Source: Cytophagaceae bacterium (GTDB lineage: Bacteria; Bacteroidota; Bacteroidia; Cytophagales; Cytophagaceae). From it: a stretch of DNA of 33,989 nucleotides. Both the position numbers and the translations under genes were made by a program. The stretch covers positions 1 to 33,989 of the forward strand of contig JBJMLY010000037.1 of assembly GCA_045805025.1 (NCBI GenBank), read 5' to 3'. This document shows, piece after piece, positions 3,735 through 30,513 of the stretch (positions are counted from its first letter, which is position 1; each line of letters starts with the position of its first letter). Below the pieces are notes generated by a model, which made no database searches, was not told where the DNA came from, and saw nothing but the letters and a program-made list of their open reading frames with translations.

Positions 3735-4364
3735 ATGCCGCTTATAGCCAACCTCAGTACACAAAACCTCCGCGAGAAGTATCCACTGCTCTGGATTCTG
3801 ATTACCAATCTGATTCCGGTTGCGGGAGTTCTTTACGCAGGATGGAACGTCTACGAGATCGTCCTGATGTACTGGTGGGAGACTCTCGTAATAGGCCTGT
3901 TCTGCCTGATCAGCCTGATCATTTCCAATGCAGAAAAAAATCTTCTGGTCCGGGGCGGATTCGCTGTGTTTTTCTTCGTGCATTTCGGACTTTTCTCGGC
4001 CATACAGGGTTTGTTTATTTTCATCATGCTAAAAGGCGACCACATAGATCATGCACAAAGCTTACAATATGGAGTCCTGATTTTATTCTTCAACTACCTG
4101 ATTCATTTTTTCAATGATTATATCTTTTCAGGCAAGTATAAAAGCCGTGAATCCCCTTCCCTGTTTGGAGTATACGGACGAATAGTCATCCAGCAGTTCG
4201 TCATCCTGATAGGAGGTTATATCACTACAAAGACTGCTATGAGTTCAGACATACGAATGCTGACCCTGCTGATCGCTCTTAAAACTTCGGTAGACCTTGG
4301 AGTTTATTTCCTGCAAAAGAAGAGTACTATAAAAACAGCGGAAATTCAAAATCACGATCGATGA
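3735..4364 (+). CDS. Multi-pass membrane protein of unknown function (DUF6498-like)
   Basis: 209-aa ORF with about 5-6 hydrophobic helices. The N-terminal NLIPVAGVLYAGWNVYEIVLMYWWETLVIG resembles DUF6498-family proteins, but that assignment is from memory only. Confidence 0.6.
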   Translation: MPLIANLSTQNLREKYPLLWILITNLIPVAGVLYAGWNVYEIVLMYWWETLVIGLFCLISLIISNAEKNLLVRGGFAVFFFVHFGLFSAIQGLFIFIMLKGDHIDHAQSLQYGVLILFFNYLIHFFNDYIFSGKYKSRESPSLFGVYGRIVIQQFVILIGGYITTKTAMSSDIRMLTLLIALKTSVDLGVYFLQKKSTIKTAEIQNHDR

Positions 4365-4799
4365 TTAAATTATCGGCTTGACCAATCAGGATATTTCTCC
4401 CTATAAAAACAACAATCCTTAATATGGCATATTCGGACTTGCATTTCTGATGATAAAAGCTGTGTGGTGTCTTCATTCAGGCTCAAAAAGGGAAATAAGC
4501 TGTTCTATGAAAAACTGTCAAAGGTTTCTGTCCATCATATAGGCCATATCGGGGGTTTGCCGCATTGCGAAACTTCAGAAAATGCTTCATGACCTCCGCC
4601 AAAGGCGAATTAAAAACCATTGATCTGGAAGATTTCAGATTGTGTAACAATTGCCGGGAAATAATAGGATTAAACCCATAGACAGGAGCTCTCTTTCCTC
4701 GGCTGCCGCTCAGCGATGGATTTTTTTTTCAACACACAAAAATAAGTCGGTTAATTATCCTAACTTCGTACCCCATAAGTTCATGATTCATTATTGCTT

Positions 4800-20381: not shown

Positions 20382-21317
20382 ATGGCTGAAGCTCAGGAAA
20401 ATAAGAAAAAAGGTGGCAGCAAGAAGGCTTTGATTTTAGCTTTTATTATCATTCTGCTTGCTATCAACGCGGTTCAGGTGTGGATGAATATCGACAAAAC
20501 CCAGGAGCTGGATAAGAAAGATAAAACCATTGTCACCCAGCAGACTAAAATTGACAGCGTTTCATTAAAGCTGGACGAAGCCATTAAAGACCTGGAAAGC
20601 AAAAAGCAGCAGATCGCCTCCCTGGGCGGAGATACCACCAAATTCGGAGAGCAGATCAGATCCCTCATCACCGAAAGAGACAAGTATAAAAAAGAAGCCA
20701 AAAACAATTATACCAAATTTGATAACCTGCAGAAAAGACTGGACGAAGCCAACAAGCTGAGAAGCGAAGCCGAGGCGGAAGTGGTCAAATATAAAAAACT
20801 GCTGGCCATGGCCGACACTGAAAATGTCCGTCTCAAATACCAGATCAATGAAAAGCTGGACACGATCAACAACCTGAAAGTCTCCAGAAAAGAACTGGCC
20901 CAGAAAGTAGCTCTGGCCTCTGTCCTCAAAGCTCAGAACATTAAAATTGATGCGATCAACAATAAGGGCAAGGAAAAAGAAGGCGGAGAGTATAAAGCCA
21001 AAAACCTTGATAAGATACGTATCACATTTATCCTGGGAGAAAATAAAGTAGCGACCAAAGAAGGAAAAGATGTATATATCCGCGTGATTGAACCGGATGG
21101 CGCTGCCCTGTTTGATCTCGCTACCGGAGGCGGAAGCTTTATATTCGAGAATAAAGAGATTTTCTACACAATGAAAACCAATATTCTTTACACAGGCAAC
21201 GACCAGCGCGTAGGCTTCGAATATAAAAAAGGAAGCCCTTACAAGCCTGGAGGACACAAAGTGGAGGTTTACTGTGAAGGAAACAAGATCGGAGAAGGAA
21301 CCTTCCTGGTGAAATAA
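20382..21317 (+). CDS. Membrane-anchored coiled-coil protein of unknown function
   Basis: 311-aa ORF with a basic N-terminus, one TM helix (ALILAFIIILLAINAVQVW), a K/E/Q/L-rich heptad-like region of about 170 aa, and a C-terminal beta-rich domain of about 110 aa. I recognised no family. Confidence 0.65.
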   Translation: MAEAQENKKKGGSKKALILAFIIILLAINAVQVWMNIDKTQELDKKDKTIVTQQTKIDSVSLKLDEAIKDLESKKQQIASLGGDTTKFGEQIRSLITERDKYKKEAKNNYTKFDNLQKRLDEANKLRSEAEAEVVKYKKLLAMADTENVRLKYQINEKLDTINNLKVSRKELAQKVALASVLKAQNIKIDAINNKGKEKEGGEYKAKNLDKIRITFILGENKVATKEGKDVYIRVIEPDGAALFDLATGGGSFIFENKEIFYTMKTNILYTGNDQRVGFEYKKGSPYKPGGHKVEVYCEGNKIGEGTFLVK

Positions 21318-22756: not shown

Positions 22757-22790
22757 AAAAGTCCGGTCCAAAGCCGGACTTTTTTATTTT
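22757..22790 (+). terminator. Rho-independent terminator after rplI
   Basis: aaaagtccgg / 7-nt loop / ccggactttttt followed by atttt. It starts 22 nt after the rplI stop. Confidence 0.8.
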
Positions 22791-22859
22791 ATACGATTCT
22801 ACCCGAAAATAATATATTAAAATAAAAACTATCTTTGCCCGTCACATACCGGTTAAGCG

Positions 22860-23423
22860 ATGTCCTTTTTATCAAATGAAAACAGCAGTTTAAAGCCTTC
22901 CGCCAACAGCGCCGAAGACTTTGAGGCTGTCTTCAGGAAATGGTATCCCTCCCTTTGTCATACCGCTTTCCGCATCGTAAGAGATAAAGACAAAGCGGAA
23001 GACCTGGTGCAGGACGTATTCGTGAAAATGTGGGAAAACAGAAAAACGATTCAGATCAATATCTCGATCAAATCATACCTGTTCCGCTCCTGCATGAATG
23101 CCGCTTTAAATGATGCGGCAAAAGCTAAAAAACACCAGCACGTATCTGCGGAAGACGCACCGATTGCAGGTACCCATCAAACAGAAGAGCGTATTGAGCA
23201 GGAAGATCTTCAGAAAAAGATCGATGAAGGATTAAATCTTCTTCCTCCGGCCTGCAGGAGCGTATTTATTCTAAGTCGTTTTGAGGAAATGAGTTATAAG
23301 GAAATTTCGGAAACACTTCAGATTTCCATAAAAACTGTTGAAAATCAGATGGGTAAGGCATTAAAAATACTCAGGGAGCATCTGAAAGATTACCTTGTAC
23401 TACTAATTTTACTGTTGTATTAA
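22860..23423 (+). CDS. ECF-type RNA polymerase sigma-70 factor (Bacteroidota expansion type)
   Basis: 187-aa ORF with region 2 (AEDLVQDVFVKMWENR) and region 4 HTH (MSYKEISETLQISIKTVENQMGKALK). It lies immediately upstream of a FecR-type gene. Confidence 0.9.
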   Translation: MSFLSNENSSLKPSANSAEDFEAVFRKWYPSLCHTAFRIVRDKDKAEDLVQDVFVKMWENRKTIQINISIKSYLFRSCMNAALNDAAKAKKHQHVSAEDAPIAGTHQTEERIEQEDLQKKIDEGLNLLPPACRSVFILSRFEEMSYKEISETLQISIKTVENQMGKALKILREHLKDYLVLLILLLY

Positions 23424-23434
23424 AAAATATTTTC

Positions 23435-23454
23435 TACCTACGTAGGGGTAGGTA
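23435..23454 (+). other. Hairpin / palindrome between the sigma and anti-sigma genes
   Basis: tacctac (23435-23441) pairs with gtaggta (23448-23454) around a 6-nt loop. This overlaps the perfect 10-bp palindrome cctacgtagg. Confidence 0.4.
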
Positions 23455-23479
23455 CTCATAGATTTGTCATAGTCACAGA

Positions 23480-24496
23480 ATGGCCGAAGAACTACATAAC
23501 AGGAACGAAGAATTCATTCACGATCTGATCGCGAAGCAACTGCAGGGCGAGCTTTCGGAAAGAGAACAAAAAATCCTTCTGGCATGGATAAGCGAGAAGG
23601 AAGAGAATAAATTCCTTTATGAGAAAACGGTGAAAGCATGGGAATTTTCAGGCCGGAAACAGGAAAATTTTCAGGTGGATACCGAGGCAGCCTGGGCCAA
23701 AGTAAGACAAAGAACAGCACAAGATCCGAAAGTGATACGAATCTGGGAGCGGCCGGCGTTCCAGATTGCCGCTTCTCTTGTCTTTCTGATCACATTAGGC
23801 TACCTGACGAATTCATTTTTCAGGTCCGCTCCCGAATATACCACCGTGGCTTCGGGCAGCGAACGGATGAAGATCTACCTGCCCGACAGCAGTATTGTCT
23901 GGCTTAACAAACACAGCTCTGTAAAGTACTCAGACGCGTATAACAAATACCTGAGAGAAGTGCAGCTCGACGGAGAAGCATTTTTTGATGTGCGGAGAGA
24001 TGAATCCAGAAAATTCGTAGTGAAAGGTCACCATTCGCTTACGGAAGTGCTGGGAACATCCTTTATCGTGAAATCCTACCATGACAGGCCGGAGGAATCC
24101 GTAGAAGTGGTGACAGGAAAGGTATCCTTTACCAGCCGCACCGACAGCAGAAAATCAGTATTGCTGACGCCCGGATTACAGGGAAAGCTGGACGGGAACG
24201 GAATGGTTACCATGCAGCAGATCCAGGATCAGAACTTCAAGGCATGGAAAGAGAAAAAACTTGAATTCGACAACACGAACCTTTCCCAAGTGATCCAGTC
24301 GCTGAACAGCTATTTTGACAATCAGGTAATCGTCTCGGACTCCGCCCTATTACAGTGCAGCTTTACAGGAAGCTTTGAAAATCCTGAGCTTGAACAGATC
24401 ATCAGCATTATTTCAGTATCGCTGAATGTTGATTACAAAAAAGAGCAGAACAGATACATCCTTTCCGGCCAGGGATGTACAGACAAAAATCATTAG
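23480..24496 (+). CDS. FecR-family anti-sigma factor / transmembrane sensor
   Basis: 338-aa ORF with a cytoplasmic N-terminal domain, one TM helix (FQIAASLVFLITLGYL), a periplasmic FecR domain (VWLNKHSSVKY, GEAFFDV, VLGTSFIV) and a C-terminal DUF4974-like module (NLSQVIQSLNSYF...). Confidence 0.9.
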   Translation: MAEELHNRNEEFIHDLIAKQLQGELSEREQKILLAWISEKEENKFLYEKTVKAWEFSGRKQENFQVDTEAAWAKVRQRTAQDPKVIRIWERPAFQIAASLVFLITLGYLTNSFFRSAPEYTTVASGSERMKIYLPDSSIVWLNKHSSVKYSDAYNKYLREVQLDGEAFFDVRRDESRKFVVKGHHSLTEVLGTSFIVKSYHDRPEESVEVVTGKVSFTSRTDSRKSVLLTPGLQGKLDGNGMVTMQQIQDQNFKAWKEKKLEFDNTNLSQVIQSLNSYFDNQVIVSDSALLQCSFTGSFENPELEQIISIISVSLNVDYKKEQNRYILSGQGCTDKNH

Positions 24497-24520
24497 AAAC
24501 TTTTAAACGAAAAAAATCAA

Positions 24521-26317
24521 ATGAGGCTTTACATAAACCTTATAATGGCCGTACTATTTCTTTTCCTATCGATGTCCCTGCAAGCGCAGGTGCTCGAAAA
24601 GAAGATCACGCTACATGAAGACAGAATTGAGCTTGGACAGGCGCTGAAAAAACTGAAGCAGAATTTCGGAGTCAAACTTTCCTATGCCAATAATGCCATT
24701 CCTGAAAAGAAAATCATCAGCATTGATGTAAAAGAAGTTAGCTTGAAGGAGGTGCTGGACAAACTTTTTATAGGTACGAATGTCTCCTACCAGCTTATCG
24801 GAGACCAGATCGTCCTGAAAAGCGATAAAAAGAAAGAAGTAAAAAAGATCAGCAAAGCAATTAAAGAAGACAGCAGTAAAACGCAACCGCTGAATCAGAA
24901 TGTGCCGACGCAGAACGAAACCGTCAACAACGAGGAGACCGTTCTGCCCGACACTTCACAAACTACGGTAGTGCAGGAAATAAAACCAGGCCCTACCCCT
25001 TCTCAAAAAGAGCTGCGCAGAGCTTACCGGCTTGAGAAGAAAAGGCTGAAGTATTCTTATATGCTGAAGAGAGACAGTCTTTACCGCATGGAGAACACTC
25101 CCGGCACGGCCAACCAGCAGCGCTGGAATGAAACTGTGCAGAACCTTAAAAGAGAGATCAGGGAAATCAGAGACAGCATTCAGCAAGGAAGCTATAAGTT
25201 ATTTCCTCCTGCAAAAGCAGATTCTTCGAGGAGCAAAACGGACTCCGCGTCTGCACCGCTCTCAGGAGATAGCATCCACTACGAAACAAGACCAGCGCAG
25301 GTAACTTTTGTAAGTCCGATAGGCACCAATGGCATCCGCTGCGGAAGGATCGTGAACGGCGTTTCTCTGAATATCCTTGGCGGATACTCGGCAGGATTGC
25401 AGGGATTTGAATTCGGCGGACTCGTAAACCTGGAAAGAGATTATGTGCATGGAGCACAATTTGCCGGACTTGTGAACCTGGTACGTAACCAGGTGAATGG
25501 CGGGCAATTCAGCGGATTGGTTAATGTAGCAGGCAGACGAGTAAAAGGCGGACAATTCGCCGGCCTTATCAATGTTGCCGGCGACAGTGTGACGGGCGCG
25601 CAATTCGCCGGACTCATTAATGCCACCCACGGTTCCTTCAAAGGAGTTCAGGGAGCGGGATTGTGCAATGTTGTTACCGGTAATTTTCACGGACCCCAGT
25701 TCGGCTTTATCAATGTAACGGCGAAGGAACACAGAGGAACACAGGTGGGCTTTATTAACTATAGCAGCAAACTGAAAGGTGCACAGATCGGCTTCCTCAA
25801 CGTATGCGACTCTGCCCAGGGGATCCCTGTCGGATTCCTGAGTATTGTAAGACATGGTTATCATAAAATGGAATTGTATGGAGGAGAATCCATGTACGGA
25901 AACGTAGCCCTTAAAACCGGCGTAAGGCATTTTTATAATATCCTTTATGCAGGAGGAGAAGTAAGCTCCAATTATTACCGCTGGGCATTCGGATATGGAA
26001 TAGGTACAGAACACGCAATCGGCGACAGAATAAATCTGGGACTGGATCTGATTGCCATGCACGTCAATGAAAACCAGGCTTTCACCGCGAAGCTGAATCT
26101 CCTGAATCAGGCAAGGCTTAATCTGGGCGTGGCGATATCCCGTTCCGCTTCCCTGTTTGCCGGACCTACCTTCAATGTGATGGTCTCACAATATGTAAAT
26201 CCTGACTATACCTTCGGGTCCAAGTTGGGTAAAGGACAGCTCTATAACAGCACAACAGGCTCCACTCCTACCAATATCAGAATGTGGATAGGATTTAACG
26301 GAGGAATACGATTCTGA
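24521..26317 (+). CDS. STN-domain outer-membrane protein with a 14-16-residue repeat array; apparently not a TonB-dependent receptor
   Basis: 598-aa ORF with a signal peptide (…SLQAQ), then an STN-like domain at about residues 27-100 (LGQALKKLKQNFGVKLSY...VSLKEVLDKLFIGTNVSYQLIGDQIVLK). A K/E/S/T-rich linker follows, then about 10 G-x-Q-[FVI]-x-G-[LF]-[IV]-N repeats, then a C-terminal region of alternating strands ending ...GFNGGIRF. I saw no plug or large-barrel motifs, and the protein is too short for a SusC/FecA-type receptor. Confidence 0.75.
   Translation: MRLYINLIMAVLFLFLSMSLQAQVLEKKITLHEDRIELGQALKKLKQNFGVKLSYANNAIPEKKIISIDVKEVSLKEVLDKLFIGTNVSYQLIGDQIVLKSDKKKEVKKISKAIKEDSSKTQPLNQNVPTQNETVNNEETVLPDTSQTTVVQEIKPGPTPSQKELRRAYRLEKKRLKYSYMLKRDSLYRMENTPGTANQQRWNETVQNLKREIREIRDSIQQGSYKLFPPAKADSSRSKTDSASAPLSGDSIHYETRPAQVTFVSPIGTNGIRCGRIVNGVSLNILGGYSAGLQGFEFGGLVNLERDYVHGAQFAGLVNLVRNQVNGGQFSGLVNVAGRRVKGGQFAGLINVAGDSVTGAQFAGLINATHGSFKGVQGAGLCNVVTGNFHGPQFGFINVTAKEHRGTQVGFINYSSKLKGAQIGFLNVCDSAQGIPVGFLSIVRHGYHKMELYGGESMYGNVALKTGVRHFYNILYAGGEVSSNYYRWAFGYGIGTEHAIGDRINLGLDLIAMHVNENQAFTAKLNLLNQARLNLGVAISRSASLFAGPTFNVMVSQYVNPDYTFGSKLGKGQLYNSTTGSTPTNIRMWIGFNGGIRF
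25301..25855 (+). repeat. Intragenic array of about ten 42-48-bp (14-16 codon) repeats inside the STN protein gene
   Basis: Consecutive units read GAQFAGLVNLVRNQVN / GGQFSGLVNVAGRRVK / GGQFAGLINVAGDSVT / GAQFAGLINATHGSFK / GVQGAGLCNVVTGNFH / GPQFGFINVTAKEHR / GTQVGFINYSSKLK / GAQIGFLNVCDSAQ / GIPVGFLSIV. The central units show strict 48-nt periodicity from 25451. Confidence 0.85.
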
Positions 26318-26354
26318 TATTCTAAACAAAACTTTTTATTCAAAATTTAAGACT

Positions 26355-27068
26355 ATGAAAAAAATCATTTTATACCACTGCTATGTCTTTTTAATAATCC
26401 TGAGCTTCAGCGGCTGCAACAATTGCAGGCAAGGCTCGGGCAACATCACCACGATGAGTCGTCCGGTAAACAGCTTCAACTCTATAAAGATCGATGGCAG
26501 CTTCTTTGTAACACTGAGAAAGGACACTGTATCAAAAGTAGAAGTGATCACGGATGAAAATCTGCAGTCGGACGTGCTGACCTATGTATACGGTAATACG
26601 CTGACCGTGGAAACCAATTCAGAAAGGTGCATCCGTAAAGCCAGCATCATGCATATCACGATTTCCGCTCCATCTTTTAATAAAATTGAACTGAGAGGTT
26701 CGGGAAATATTACCGGCCTGGATACGATCCCCGGCGACTATCTTCAGGTCGTCAGCGAAGGGTCAGGCGATATAACTCTGACAGCCAAAGCGATTGATAT
26801 CAATGTCAGCATCCGGGGCTCGGGGCATACGGAGCTCTATGGAACGACAGCCAGTCTCTCGGAAAAGATAGATGGTTCCGGCTCTATACAGGCATTCGGA
26901 CTTAACGCCTCTACCGCCAATGCAAACATTACCGGATCAGGCCTTATTGAAACCCGTGTGAGCAGCACGCTGAATGCATCGGTAAACGGAAGCGGAAATA
27001 TTACCTATGCCGGTAATCCCACTGTGAGCAGCCATGTGAAGGGTTCAGGGAGTGTTACGCATCAGTAA
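26355..27068 (+). CDS. Head GIN domain (DUF2807-like) beta-helical protein, probable lipoprotein
   Basis: 237-aa ORF with a signal peptide ending ...LSFSGC. Eight GSG-x-[IVT] motifs are present; seven of them recur about every 20-22 residues from RGSGNI onward (RGSGNI, EGSGDI, RGSGHT, DGSGSI, TGSGLI, NGSGNI, KGSGSV). Confidence 0.8.
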   Translation: MKKIILYHCYVFLIILSFSGCNNCRQGSGNITTMSRPVNSFNSIKIDGSFFVTLRKDTVSKVEVITDENLQSDVLTYVYGNTLTVETNSERCIRKASIMHITISAPSFNKIELRGSGNITGLDTIPGDYLQVVSEGSGDITLTAKAIDINVSIRGSGHTELYGTTASLSEKIDGSGSIQAFGLNASTANANITGSGLIETRVSSTLNASVNGSGNITYAGNPTVSSHVKGSGSVTHQ

Positions 27069-27124
27069 TAATATTCCATACTGAATTTGTTTGTGATGAC
27101 ACAAACGGGTGAAGAGTATGTCAT

Positions 27125-27220
27125 TTCTATGTCAGCCTGAGCGTAGTCGAAAGCTCTTATCACTGAAAGCACAGGCTTCGTGTATCAGACAATGCTTCGA
27201 CTACGCTCAGCATGACAGAA
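27125..27220. repeat. REP-like long imperfect palindrome between convergent genes
   Basis: gtcagcctgagcgtagtcgaaagc (27131-27154) pairs with gcttcgactacgctcagcatgac (27194-27216). There is a 15-bp perfect core ctgagcgtagtcgaa / ttcgactacgctcag, flanking gtca/tgac pairs, and a partly self-paired loop of about 38 nt. Confidence 0.8.
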
Positions 27221-27225
27221 ACAAT

Positions 27226-30129
27226 TTACATGCTGGCATGGATCACATGTACCCAGCCCTTGTATTTATTTTCAGTCTGACTATCGCTGATCAGGTAGTA
27301 ATACATCCCGTCATGGACTTTGCTCAGATCCCAGTTGTTGGTATAGCCCTTCTCCAGGAATATTCGTTCGCCCCAGCGGTTGTAGACTTCCAGATCAAAG
27401 CGGTTGCCGATGTTGGTGATTTCAAACCCATCGTTGAAAGAATCGCCGTTCGGAGTGATCAGATTCGGAATGAAGAAATAATCGACATTCAGGTGAGAAG
27501 AAATAGTATCCAGGCATTGGTCGTCTTTCACAACCAGGTAAATGTCATAGCTGCCATGAGCGTGATGCCCTCCTCTTCCTTTGTAAGAAAAGTCAAGAGA
27601 GGCTATAGAGTCGTTTGAAAATGCCTGGGTTGTGTCCGCACTTCCGATCATCCAGTAATATTGTTTAGGAGAAGGACCTGCAGAGAAAGTGCTGGCTGTT
27701 CCGTCGAAATCGACATTTACGACATCGTCGAGTCCGACAATCGCTTCGTTAACTGCTTTTATTTTTGCATCTACGAGGGCACAAGGATCATAATTGACAT
27801 TGAAGGTGATCATAGCTGTATCCAGACAAAGTCCCTGGTTGGTGACCAGGTAAATGGTATAAGCACCCTGAGGGAGACTTCCTCCAGCTCCGTTATAAGC
27901 AAAGCTCAACGATGGAGTCGCTGTAGTGGCAAATGCCAGAGAGGTATCGGCGCTTCCATTGATCCAGTAGAATTTATGAGCTTCGGTGCCAATCGCATCA
28001 AAAATACTTGAGGTCCCCGAGAAGTTCAGTGTAATTGGCGAGAAGCCATCTACGGCAGTATCAGTCACAGCCGCAATGTTTGCCTGCAGGTTATAGGTAC
28101 AGACAGGATGCACCACTTTAAAGGTTCTTGTAGCCGTATCGAGACAAAGTCCCTCTCTGATGACCAGGTAAACAGTATAAGTCCCTTCCGGAAGATTTCC
28201 CCCTGCCCCCCCGAATGCGAAAGTGCGGGATGAAGTGGGAGAAGAGGAAAAGGCAGTACTCGTATCTGCGCTTCCCATCATCCAGTAATATTGATGCGGC
28301 TCAGTACCGGCAGCATCAAAAACACTGTTCGTTCCGTTGAAATTCACCGTGGTAGGATTGGTATCATCGACCGTCGTGTCTGCCACCGGATTAATAGCTG
28401 ACTGAATAGTATAAGTACAGTGAGGATGTACCACGTTAAATGTTCTTGTCGTGGTATCCAGACAAAGCCCTTGCCTGATCACCAGGTAAACAGTATAGGT
28501 ACCTTCCGGAAGATTTCCTCCAGCTCCGCCGAATGCGAAAGTGCGGGATGAAGTGGAAGAAGTAGAAAAAGCAGTATTCGTATCTGCACTACCGATCATC
28601 CAGTAATACTTATGAGGCTCGATACCCACAGCATCAAAAACGCTGTTCGTTCCGTCAAAATTAACAGTGGTAGGATTTGAATTGTCTACTGTAGTATCTG
28701 CCACAGGATTGATGCTGGCCTGAAGGTTATAGGTACAGGACGGAGGAGGCACGCAGCCGCTGATGGTTATTTGTTTGGTAGCGGTAAAGGTATGACCGCA
28801 GGTAGCATCGTTCACACTCATAGTAACTGTATACGAACCATTCGCCGCATATGTATGAGAGGGACTTGCCAGGCTGGAAGTCGGACTACCATCGCCGAAA
28901 TTCCAGACTATGCTGGCAGGATTAATGCTTACATTGCTGAGAAAATAATTCTTGAACTGATAAGAGAAGCTGGCATTACATGCAGTTGACGAAGCAGAAA
29001 TTACCGGCAGTTCGGGGCTGAGCCAGGCTACATTAATTAGCCCTCTGAAGGTGCTGCCTGAACCTATGGAAAGAGTGCTATAAGTAGCCGAAGCAGGCGT
29101 ATTAAGATTATTGATCACTCCTATAAAATTACCAGTAGAGGGAGAGCAATAAAGATTGCCGTCGGGCCCTAATTGCATGCTCCAGGAAGCGCTGCCAGAA
29201 ATTGTTCCTGAAGCCGCCGAATTTACATCAAACCATTGAACTATCGTTCCCTGCCCTGACGTATAAATTGTATTTCCATCGGGAGAAAATTCGAGACCAA
29301 CGCCATGAACCCCGGTATTTGCCGATTTAATTTGTGAGCCTATCGTTCCGGTTGTTCTGTCAAAATTATAGATAACGAGATTTGTGCCGCCCGCCCATGC
29401 AATTTTATTCTGACAAGGGCTCAATTTAAGATATGACTGGTTGTTACTTACATTATAGCTGGAAGGAGTTTTTACCTGATCGGCTAGTGCTGTTACACCC
29501 GATGCAGTTACACTCCAAACTTTAAATGTATTACTTCCCTGAGCGTGACTGATGATCCAGTAATTTCCTTTCCCGTCGTTTCCCGCAGTAATCGATTCAT
29601 CCACCTGAGCTGACGCAATAAGCAAGGTTGGTCCGCTCAAATAAACAGCCTGTCCGGATCCATTCTTTTTGAATTTATAGTAATTGATTCCATTCCCACC
29701 ACACAACCCTCCGGTAATATCATTACCTACAAAAAGATAATATACGCTATCAGGATTGGCAGGGTCAGGAATTGCAGTGCCCCCACCCGTTGAAGATCCT
29801 CCACAAGTAACGTCGGTGATCATATTTCTTACCGTGGCGTTGGCGACATTCCTGGCTTCCATCGTATTGCTGTAAATGGCCATATTACCCGCCCGGTCGC
29901 TGACCGCTGTGGATGCTTCGACGAATTCAGATCCTGGATTAGAAGCGGCTCCTGTTGCAGTGGGCACTGTTGATGTAGGAAAATTTCCTGTTGGAAAATT
30001 CACCCCCCCGCCAGCGCCAAAGCGCCATTGAGGAGAAAGCGTATAAGGTGATACCACCTGTGCAAACAAACTCCCGTTCACGAAAAGAAAAAACAGAAAG
30101 AGAGAGACGGATTTCAGTAAAATCTTCAT
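27226..30129 (-). CDS. T9SS type-B (gliding-motility-associated) C-terminal-domain secreted protein with beta-propeller-like N-domain, PKD domain and four tandem repeats
   Basis: Likely start is MKILLKSVSLFLFFLFVNGSLFAQ (ATG at 30129); the track ORF extends to 30204. The N-terminal ~400 aa carry SPDGNTIY / GPDGNLY motifs. A PKD motif is present (WNFGDGSPTSS...HTYAANGSYTVTMSV). Four 102-106-aa repeats follow. The C-terminal 83 aa (IPNLITPNGDSFNDGFEI...LEVYNRWGERIF...YYYLI) match the type-B T9SS sorting domain. Confidence 0.85.
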   Translation of the reverse strand: MKILLKSVSLFLFFLFVNGSLFAQVVSPYTLSPQWRFGAGGGVNFPTGNFPTSTVPTATGAASNPGSEFVEASTAVSDRAGNMAIYSNTMEARNVANATVRNMITDVTCGGSSTGGGTAIPDPANPDSVYYLFVGNDITGGLCGGNGINYYKFKKNGSGQAVYLSGPTLLIASAQVDESITAGNDGKGNYWIISHAQGSNTFKVWSVTASGVTALADQVKTPSSYNVSNNQSYLKLSPCQNKIAWAGGTNLVIYNFDRTTGTIGSQIKSANTGVHGVGLEFSPDGNTIYTSGQGTIVQWFDVNSAASGTISGSASWSMQLGPDGNLYCSPSTGNFIGVINNLNTPASATYSTLSIGSGSTFRGLINVAWLSPELPVISASSTACNASFSYQFKNYFLSNVSINPASIVWNFGDGSPTSSLASPSHTYAANGSYTVTMSVNDATCGHTFTATKQITISGCVPPPSCTYNLQASINPVADTTVDNSNPTTVNFDGTNSVFDAVGIEPHKYYWMIGSADTNTAFSTSSTSSRTFAFGGAGGNLPEGTYTVYLVIRQGLCLDTTTRTFNVVHPHCTYTIQSAINPVADTTVDDTNPTTVNFNGTNSVFDAAGTEPHQYYWMMGSADTSTAFSSSPTSSRTFAFGGAGGNLPEGTYTVYLVIREGLCLDTATRTFKVVHPVCTYNLQANIAAVTDTAVDGFSPITLNFSGTSSIFDAIGTEAHKFYWINGSADTSLAFATTATPSLSFAYNGAGGSLPQGAYTIYLVTNQGLCLDTAMITFNVNYDPCALVDAKIKAVNEAIVGLDDVVNVDFDGTASTFSAGPSPKQYYWMIGSADTTQAFSNDSIASLDFSYKGRGGHHAHGSYDIYLVVKDDQCLDTISSHLNVDYFFIPNLITPNGDSFNDGFEITNIGNRFDLEVYNRWGERIFLEKGYTNNWDLSKVHDGMYYYLISDSQTENKYKGWVHVIHASM
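27478..28737 (-). repeat. Four tandem intragenic repeats (318, 318, 318 and 306 nt) in the T9SS protein gene
   Basis: Repeat boundaries are set by the leading Cys codons at 28737, 28419, 28101 and 27783. Units 1 and 2 are identical at about 88 of 106 residues by eye. All units share YYW-x-x-GSADT, a G-rich loop, Y-x-[IV]-YLV and CLDT. Confidence 0.9.
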
Positions 30130-30513
30130 TGCAGAGTTTTTTGTTTTTATGATTTTATAATTGACTTTTTTGATATAATTATTGTAGTTTTCTACGATAA
30201 CCATAAATATGACTTACATTATTAATATTAAATATATGAAATGTTAATATTCAACTGGATTTATAGGGAAATTTAAGGAGTATTTCGGTCAACTTGCGAT
30301 GTAAATTTCAGGCAAAATAAGAACTTTAAAAACAAGCAATATCGTGAAGCCAGGAGTAAGAAACTTCCCGTCAATCCAAATGAAAAGAAATTTTAAGGTA
30401 TCGGGAAGACTATTAAAAAAAAATCAAGAGTATATAAAACATATGCTTGCCCCAAGCCTCTGAATTTGTATATCGGAGTAAAATCTTCTACATTCATAGA
30501 CTAAGAAACTCAG

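Follow-up and report, generated by a model that had tools for sequence, protein, structure and literature searches.

What controls an extracytoplasmic function (ECF) sigma factor when the protein encoded beside its FecR-type anti-sigma factor has the signalling domain of a TonB-dependent transducer and none of the rest? Cell-surface signalling is defined by such a transducer, and mechanistic models rely on TonB force to free FecR. The question is raised by a contig of a Cytophagaceae bacterium (JBJMLY010000037.1), of which positions 1 to 33,989, the whole stretch that was analysed, are here called the window. It contains four co-directional genes separated, in the open reading frame (ORF) listing, by 56, 24 and 37 bp. 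They encode an ECF sigma factor, a FecR-type protein, a 598-amino-acid (aa) protein with an STN domain and a lipoprotein of the DUF2807 (GIN) type. An earlier note, made from the letters of the DNA, had described this arrangement; its coordinates and gaps were reproduced exactly, and the four identities, including the DUF4974-like C-terminus of FecR, were matched by Pfam. We favour, with moderate confidence, an explanation in which this is a cell-surface-signalling ECF module whose TonB-dependent transducer has been replaced by a small outer-membrane protein, the STN domain of which guards FecR.

The 598-aa protein starts with a signal peptide, modelled by AlphaFold as a helix at aa 2-21. The STN domain that follows, placed at about aa 27-100 in the earlier note, is well supported: Pfam STN matches residues 53-100 (E 5e-9, 36.1 bits against a cut-off of 28.4), and the region is modelled with a per-residue confidence (pLDDT) above 90. 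Its Foldseek and profile matches include the N0 domain of PilQ, DotD, the signalling domain of PupA and the periplasmic domain of a Bacteroides anti-sigma factor. A PDB sequence search with the 598-aa protein as single sequence gave nothing relevant; the same search with the family profile detected the STN region only, and weakly (PilQ N0, the PupA signalling domain and the Bacteroides anti-sigma periplasmic domain). Behind it comes a charged and polar linker, also described in that note, which is rich in K, S, E and T, about 150 aa long and largely disordered (106-155 and 219-251), with two helices modelled at 162-221.

Residues 255-598 are modelled as an all-beta body at pLDDT above 95 in the full-length model, for which the overall value is 84. 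A separate model of the body, made with STN-less homologues, has pLDDT 93.5 and pTM 0.80. The repeats that had been read by eye as about ten copies of G-x-Q-x-x-G-L-x-N are ten in register, of the form G-x-Q-x-x-G-(L/F)-x-N, with starts at 295, 311, 327, 343, 359, 375, 391, 406, 420 and 434 and periods of 16 (six times), 15, 14 and 14 residues. They match the NCBIfam model LA_2272_repeat at 43.4 bits (cut-off 25). Each repeat is modelled as two paired short strands with a V/I-N-V core. Strand pairs of this kind are typical of a beta-solenoid, and the repeat region is predicted to form one; Foldseek with the full-length protein and with the C-terminal domain alone found no structural match for it in the PDB. 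About nine longer strands follow (aa 460-597), in which hydrophobic and polar residues alternate, and the chain ends in ...WIGFNGGIRF, in keeping with the alternating strands and terminal Phe first noticed. The pattern fits lipid-facing strands of a putative barrel. W589, G591, G595, R597 and F598 are invariant or nearly so, and across 90 aligned sequences the body has 18 invariant columns.

The full-length modelling proposed in the earlier note gave a confident body whose C-terminal half resembles 8-strand barrels. Foldseek found no PDB entry at E <=1e-3, whether the query was the whole protein or the body. Partial matches of the C-terminal half were to OprF-N (TMt 0.61), Opa60 (0.58) and NspA (0.55), followed by OmpA, OmpW and PagP; these are 8-strand outer-membrane barrels, and only barrels of 8-12 strands were matched, over 145-190 columns. 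Standard barrel topology would place the solenoid on the periplasmic side.

That the protein lacks a plug and TonB-type architecture was upheld. Pfam gives no match of the 598-aa protein to Plug, TonB_dep_Rec, CarboxypepD_reg, Secretin or Autotransporter even at E <=1, and there is no plug-like segment in the secondary structure of the AlphaFold model. BtuB is found among the Foldseek matches only at rank 40 (probability 0.51), and the barrel of the autotransporter Hbp at a probability of only 0.33. Because Pfam finds neither a plug nor a 22-strand barrel and the fold resembles only small barrels, the protein as modelled consists of an STN domain on a tether, a solenoid and a small barrel, and is not a TonB-dependent transducer. 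No TonB box of the DEVVVTGYG type was found after the STN or CarboxypepD_reg module in any of the long forms described below. A candidate linker motif, DT...hydrophobic-x-hydrophobic, is present in 8 of 30 sequences against 3.5 +/- 1.7 in shuffles, and was dropped as a TonB box because it is not enriched. TonB boxes are weakly conserved, so that sequence alone cannot prove their absence.

The 598-aa gene is not a chance or degenerate ORF, since its relatives are many and its surroundings are kept. A first search gave at least 704 homologues, all unnamed or called 'STN domain-containing', and a search with the body only gave 6,268 clusters at 50% identity with E <=1e-3 (1,446 with E <=1e-30). 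The two closest relatives, at 69% and 50% identity, keep the four-gene layout, and the first of them also has the rpsR-rplI context. Lengths of body homologues are bimodal, and Pfam has no model for the solenoid-barrel body. A genome scan with the 598-aa protein as single query found no relatives; with a 17-sequence alignment the scan (one genome per species) gave 340 confirmed relatives, from which 79 loci were kept. These are almost all from Bacteroidota (Cytophagales, Cyclobacteriaceae, Chryseolinea, Saprospiraceae, Bacteroidales and others), and the family is widespread in the groups named.

The neighbourhoods of the 79 loci and of the loci from the earlier searches were probed by tblastn with the four window proteins and a neighbour of about 790 aa, and were counted after three start-codon miscalls had been corrected. 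Long forms have an N-terminal extension of about 200-290 aa; in short forms the signal peptide leads directly into the body. FecR lies directly upstream, ending -37 to +185 bp away, in 56 of the 57 assessable long forms, and sigma lies upstream in 51 of the 57. The sole long form without an adjacent FecR gene (L044) has no STN domain. Among short, STN-less forms FecR is upstream in 0 of 26. STN-bearing members therefore pair near-obligately with FecR and sigma, and the proposal that an STN-bearing gene which is not a TonB-dependent transducer belongs with sigma and FecR came through the neighbourhood survey that the earlier note had called for (56/57 against 0/26).

Within the family the parts are combined in several ways. 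An STN match was found in 55 of 61 long-form N-termini, and in 32 of the 61 CarbopepD_reg_2 is present as well. There are thus two types of long form, one with STN and CarboxypepD_reg, which is a SusC-type N-terminus, and one with STN and a linker, to which the window protein belongs. The short forms (n=31) comprise 12 second copies within a long-form cluster and 19 that stand alone. In a neighbour-joining tree without support values, long and short forms are interleaved in at least two deep clades, which suggests that the N-terminal module has been gained or lost repeatedly. The existence of STN-less paralogues shows that the repeat and barrel body does something by itself. The role of sensor that the earlier note gave to the repeat region is an assumption. 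The GIN gene is present in 20 of 50 related clusters. A gene for a receptor-like protein of about 790 aa lies 3' of the STN gene in 23 of 42 assessable clusters (L004:8006-10384, L001:8208-10586, L005:8987-11344 and 20 others). Its product has CarboxypepD_reg, a TonB-box-like motif KEVVVVGQK and a terminal Phe, lacks an STN domain, and gives a borderline score for Plug, 22.7-23.7 bits where the cut-off is 23.9. In the open-access literature no paper was found on the function of the STN-repeat family, LA_2272 or VC2662, nor any description of the promoter motif treated below.

A second line of evidence comes from proteins in which the same body is joined to something else. At four Microscillaceae loci it follows an N-terminal region of 380-470 aa, giving proteins of 770-860 aa. 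In that region about 48 polar residues and a single moderately hydrophobic segment are joined to a K-, Q-, P- and T-rich linker of about 350 aa, and neither a signal peptide nor an STN domain nor any Pfam match was found there. The fusion gene is directly 3' of a distantly related ECF sigma gene at all three assessable loci (L037, L042 and L043), and in L037 its ATG overlaps the sigma stop codon by 8 nt. The fourth locus (L054) is cut off by the start of its contig. The layout is that of the Dma proteins, described in 2024 as anti-sigma factors joined covalently to a barrel and proposed to sense, via that barrel, perturbation of the outer membrane or stimuli from outside (PMC10927553). In Dma1 of Bacteroides thetaiotaomicron the N-terminus binds sigma, a helix lies in the inner membrane, and a long disordered region leads to an 8-strand outer-membrane barrel at the C-terminus; fractionation and pull-downs back this architecture (PMC10927553). 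The fusions of L037, L042 and L043 (with L054) share this single-chain plan, but their outer-membrane domain differs from that of Dma1. The fusion of the solenoid-barrel body to an anti-sigma-like N-terminus argues for a place of this body at the outer-membrane end of an anti-sigma pathway. The earlier note knew of no characterised example of such a device, and in this it passes over the Dma family of Bacteroides, a close functional analogue (PMC10927553).

Candidate targets of the sigma factor are indicated by a two-block motif, first seen 5' of sigma genes. The weight matrix derived from its 28 strict instances gives TAGGGGTA(A)-N13-TTGTC(T/A)TA as consensus. In 2.4 Mb, both strands counted (L001-L087), there are 81 matches at >=14 bits, against 1 in shuffled sequence, and all 81 are on the coding strand of the cluster. 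They lie 5' of FecR (22), sigma (21), short-form genes (15), GIN (11), and the receptor-like gene (9), and 3 could not be assigned; some of the short-form genes stand alone, e.g., in L007 (Larkinella). The window has one weight-matrix site, at 19.2 bits, which is also its best match to GGGGTA-N14-TGTCT (1 mismatch). It reads TAGGGGTA GGTACTCATAGAT TTGTCATA and lies in the gap between sigma and FecR, as do the sites 5' of FecR at 21 other loci. Transcription from this site would yield a near-leaderless mRNA for FecR, the STN protein and GIN. A palindrome, CTACC TACGTA GGGGTAG (23434-23451), overlaps the upstream block of the candidate promoter; there is no T-run after it, so it is not a terminator.

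A scan of metagenomes with the motif only gave 127 instances (L088-L207). The first recognisable downstream gene belongs to the cluster family in 63 of 119 cases, against 6 of 121 on the control side: sigma 33, FecR 10, body 8, receptor-like 7 and GIN 5. Among other ORFs 3' of the motif are some for diverged GIN-like lipoproteins and some for more small barrel-like proteins with a final Phe. Fixed spacing and a downstream block containing GTC are typical of ECF promoters, and we infer that TAGGGGTA-N13-TTGTC(T/A)TA is an ECF promoter dependent on the cluster sigma. The motif looks like the mark of a candidate regulon of outer-membrane proteins. Extra sigma or sigma/FecR genes adjoin some clusters (L047:10948-13696; L014:251-1993, minus strand; L059:17211-17711), and behind the pair in L047 there is a weak TonB-receptor-like match. 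These sigma factors are about as similar to the window sigma as the cluster's own sigma is, and none has the TAGGGGTA...TTGTC motif. That the extra genes lack it suggests that the motif is specific to solenoid-barrel clusters.

The sigma and FecR proteins themselves are of a familiar type. Sigma belongs to TIGR02985, the Bacteroides-type, FecI-like ECF factors (165.8 bits against an NCBIfam cut-off of 126.4). FecR has Pfam matches to FecR (E 4e-18) and to FecR_C, the former DUF4974 (E 3e-13, aa 260-327), with a cytoplasmic N-terminal region and one transmembrane helix (aa 96-114). A single Gly-Thr site within the FecR domain (aa 192-193, EVLGTSFIV) matches by position G181/T182 of Escherichia coli FecR, where autoproteolysis occurs (PMC12036975). 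In that system TonB, acting via FecA, releases the C-terminal fragment and starts a cleavage cascade (PMC12036975). In Pseudomonas the signalling domain of FoxA binds FoxR in the absence of signal and shields it from proteolysis (PMC11637429).

In the explanation that we favour, the 598-aa protein would be anchored in the outer membrane by its barrel, and its STN domain, on the tether, would span the periplasm and bind the C-terminal STN-like domain of FecR. The contact may be said to have genetic support in the adjacency of the two genes in 56 of 57 long forms, and it would shield FecR from proteolysis in the manner described for FoxA and FoxR. A change at the anchor, be it perturbation, mis-assembly, loss, or occupancy of the solenoid or barrel, would break it. 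FecR would then be degraded by the usual site-1 and RseP cascade, and the sigma factor released would transcribe from TAGGGGTA-N13-TTGTC(T/A)TA promoters. Its target in the window would be the FecR-STN-GIN operon, which would give negative feedback; in other genomes the targets would also include STN-less paralogues, GIN lipoproteins, other small barrels and the STN-less TonB-receptor-like protein. The module most likely monitors or remodels the outer membrane. More tentatively, the family may represent a third, widespread and TonB-independent ECF route across the envelope in Bacteroidota, in which loss of the STN guard upon disturbance of the outer membrane or of the protein's own assembly switches on an outer-membrane regulon from an undescribed promoter, the body being used interchangeably in two-piece and one-piece form.

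The receptor-like gene allows another reading, in which the transducer has been split: the STN protein would be the detachable arm of the STN-less receptor of about 790 aa, the input would be an imported nutrient, and a TonB-dependent conformational change in the receptor would pass through the associated STN protein to FecR. The domains of that receptor, its place 3' of the STN gene in 23 of 42 clusters and the same candidate promoter in front of it (9 sites in the locus scan and 7 in the metagenome scan) all suit such an arrangement. The pairing of FecR with STN (56/57) is nevertheless far tighter than that with the receptor; the receptor-like gene is absent from the 34-kb window, where a partner encoded elsewhere in the genome is conceivable, and it is also not in the operons of the closest relatives. 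It could be a mere member of the regulon, and no sign of a complex between the two outer-membrane proteins was found. We regard a split transducer as unlikely, though it bears on the earlier suggestion that the input is not an imported substrate. For the family as a whole that suggestion is not firm, given the clusters that carry the receptor-like gene.

The candidate promoter 5' of FecR-STN-GIN, by which the STN protein itself would be induced, lends itself to yet another interpretation. Here the STN protein made under sigma control would merely stabilise FecR and end the response, the signal being sensed elsewhere, for example by the periplasmic domain of FecR directly or by the GIN lipoprotein. 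In Pseudomonas, overproduced signalling domains are reported to inhibit cell-surface signalling (PMC11637429). For such a decoy, however, a conserved outer-membrane anchor of about 350 aa and a long tether are not needed, and the Dma-like fusions point to the body as the pathway's input end; we hold this role to be improbable. That the 598-aa ORF is a decayed SusC/FecA transducer, or a relative of secretins or autotransporters, could be argued from the Pfam description, by which STN domains occur elsewhere in TonB-dependent transducers and in secretins, and from the SusC-type order of STN and CarboxypepD_reg in half of the long forms, but this is effectively refuted by the Pfam and fold evidence given above, namely no plug, receptor, secretin or autotransporter domain, BtuB far down the Foldseek matches, and a confidently modelled body with a fold of its own, thousands of homologue clusters and invariant columns. 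The secretin reading in particular was rejected, there being no match to PF00263 and a resemblance to PilQ in the N0/STN region only, as was a classical (type Va) autotransporter, with no match to PF03797 and the low probability for the Hbp barrel.

Several points weigh against the guard explanation. The barrel is weakly supported by Foldseek (best E about 1e-3, TMt <=0.61), and the number of strands, the closure of the barrel and the side on which the solenoid lies are predictions from the model. Binding of the STN domain to FecR, the outer-membrane location and the sigma dependence of the motif are deduced from sequence, models and synteny. Canonical signalling relies on TonB force applied at a TonB box, and here none is detectable. 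About half of the related clusters (23/42) carry the TonB-receptor-like gene, and in those a transport-coupled signal is possible. The weight matrix was seeded from the loci first scanned, for which the motif-only metagenome scan is the independent control.

Coordinates of the module, its signals and the one-piece relatives are collected in Table 1.

Table 1. Features of the four-gene module and related one-piece genes (window positions unless a locus is named)
Feature	Position	Strand	Basis or remark
Intrinsic terminator 3' of rplI	22757-22783	+	11-bp stem, 5 G-C pairs, then T-run
TATCTTTG, putative -7 box (TAnnTTTG)	22830-22837	+	22 nt 5' of sigma ATG
ECF sigma factor, 187 aa	22860-23423	+	Pfam Sigma70_r2, Sigma70_r4_2; NCBIfam TIGR02985
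Candidate ECF promoter (N13 spacer)	23443-23471	+	sigma-FecR gap, ends 8 nt 5' of FecR ATG
FecR-type anti-sigma factor, 338 aa	23480-24496	+	Pfam FecR, FecR_C
STN protein, 598 aa	24521-26317	+	Pfam STN
Signal peptide, aa 1-22 (...SLQAQ)	24521-24586	+	hydrophobic aa 1-19, mean Kyte-Doolittle 1.81
STN domain, aa 27-101	24599-24823	+	Pfam STN, FecR_C-like E 7e-5; pLDDT 92-97
Flexible linker, aa 105-254	24833-25282	+	K/S/E/T/Q/R/P-rich; pLDDT <50 in disordered parts
Cap strands and ten repeats, aa 255-446	25283-25858	+	repeat register; LA_2272_repeat; pLDDT >95
Small beta-barrel-like C-terminal region, aa 447-598 and stop	25859-26317	+	amphipathic strands, terminal Phe
DUF2807/GIN lipoprotein, 237 aa	26355-27068	+	Pfam DUF2807; lipobox
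One-piece fusions	L037 4597-7038 (sigma 4014-4604); L042:6918-9224; L043:6840-9413; L054:6-2318		

The strong terminator after rplI sets the module apart as its own transcription unit and forms its upstream boundary. The short element TATCTTTG, which by the TAnnTTTG consensus of Bacteroidetes promoters we take to be a Bacteroidota housekeeping-type -7 box, is likely to be the basal promoter of the sigma gene; a TAnnTTTG box is also found 5' of sigma in the window-type clusters L002, L009-L011 and L079. A scan of the operon with the sigma-70 consensus gave 8 sites, with 8.1 expected by chance, and hence no excess. The GIN gene has a strong match to Pfam DUF2807 (E 5e-39) and the lipobox LSFSG-C21. 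DUF2807 proteins are beta-helices of the Toastrack superfamily that have been tied to envelope-stress signalling (PMC11237479), and a member in Porphyromonas gingivalis influences biofilm formation and adhesion (PMC10949514).

The genes flanking the module in the window are housekeeping genes (CTP synthase, YidC, rpsF-rpsR-rplI, signal peptidase and DAHP synthase), and in the whole window (1-33989) no Rfam family at the gathering threshold and no tRNA or tmRNA gene was found. A gene at 27226-30204 (minus strand) converges on the GIN gene; its 992-aa product combines a PKD domain and four internal repeats, each of about 120 aa, with a CHU_C sorting domain for type IX secretion. In the closest relative (P0002) GIN is followed directly by GSCFA and DsbH-like genes, with no 992-aa gene between; because of this the gene looks like an insertion specific to the window lineage. 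A 311-aa ORF (20382-21317, plus strand) without a Pfam match begins with a basic N-terminus and contains one hydrophobic segment and a long K-, E- and Q-rich stretch resembling a coiled coil; its C-terminus is beta-rich. Two further ORFs, one of 266 aa (25262-26062, minus strand) antisense within the repeat-coding region of the 598-aa gene and one of 169 aa (27109-27618, plus strand) overlapping the 3' end of the 992-aa gene antisense, are most likely shadow ORFs of G/C-patterned repeat sequence and not genes.

The observation as such is real. What is new is a transporter-less, two-piece variant of cell-surface signalling; what was known is the sigma/FecR/STN relay and tethering of the Dma kind. 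A large conserved family keeps the STN-FecR-sigma relay and does so without the transporter and without a detectable TonB box; either FecR may be released by a TonB-independent mechanism, or the signalling arm may be supplied in trans. The family also bridges FecR-type signalling and the Dma anti-sigma factors, with the one-piece fusions as the 'Rosetta-stone' link between them. Dma anti-sigma factors control vesiculation and envelope properties in gut Bacteroides (PMC10927553). If the same body is indeed attached in both two-piece and one-piece form, this would point to modular evolution of sensors that span both membranes. The family could open a route to outer-membrane homeostasis in Bacteroidota, with a promoter motif that can be tested and a candidate regulon. 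To our knowledge the phylum is without the well-studied sigma-E/RseA and Rcs paradigms.

Among known families, the nearest at the level of the repeats are the NCBIfam entries NF047436 ('LA_2272 family surface repeat'), which the window repeats match above the cut-off, and NF047437 ('VC2662 family'), which they match weakly. These are models of repeats or of small proteins, however, and cover neither the STN domain, nor the barrel, nor the link to sigma and FecR. VC2662 is an uncharacterised protein enriched in a Vibrio cholerae ompU mutant (PMC10865864).

SusC-like transducers of polysaccharide utilisation loci are found in the same phylum with sigma factors of the same subfamily, TIGR02985, and their order of STN then CarboxypepD_reg is kept in 32 of the 61 long forms. 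They differ in having a TonB box of the DEVVVTGYG type, a plug and a 22-strand barrel, where the present family has a solenoid of the LA_2272 type followed by a small barrel. In the window protein a linker that is partly disordered and partly helical takes the place of CarboxypepD_reg, and no SusD-like gene is present here. The FecIRA, FoxIRA and PupIRB systems share with the module a FecI-like ECF sigma factor beside FecR (with FecR domain, GT site, FecR_C and one transmembrane helix), a partner with an N-terminal STN domain encoded next to FecR, and an expected relay by regulated proteolysis of FecR. In contrast to their partners, the window protein has no plug, 22-strand barrel or detectable TonB box, and at 598 aa it is shorter than TonB-dependent transducers, which have about 700-1100 aa. 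The candidate regulon here consists of outer-membrane proteins and not of an uptake operon. The TonB-powered pull on FecA-FecR (PMC12036975) has no obvious equivalent.

The likeness to the Dma system is of a different kind. In both, and both in Bacteroidota, an ECF sigma factor would be governed via a small barrel, here a putative one of the 8-strand type, on a long disordered periplasmic tether (pLDDT below 50 at 106-155 and 219-251 in the window protein), proteolysis is proposed, and the regulon, here a candidate one, is made up of envelope proteins. The window module is, however, in two non-covalent pieces, FecR and an STN protein with a cleavable signal peptide, so that the sigma-binding N-terminus and the inner-membrane helix are not in the barrel protein but on the separate FecR. 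Its sigma factor is FecI-like and not ECF21, a distinction drawn from the TIGR02985 match alone. A solenoid of ten repeats stands before the barrel, which gives no OMP_b-brl_2 match, though its fold is like that of 8-strand barrels (TMt 0.55-0.61). Dma1 controls vesiculation via NigD1 (PMC10927553), whereas no NigD gene was seen here. By analogy, the module may be read as the two-piece counterpart of the single-chain Dma anti-sigma factors, a hybrid of FecIRA-type signalling and Dma.

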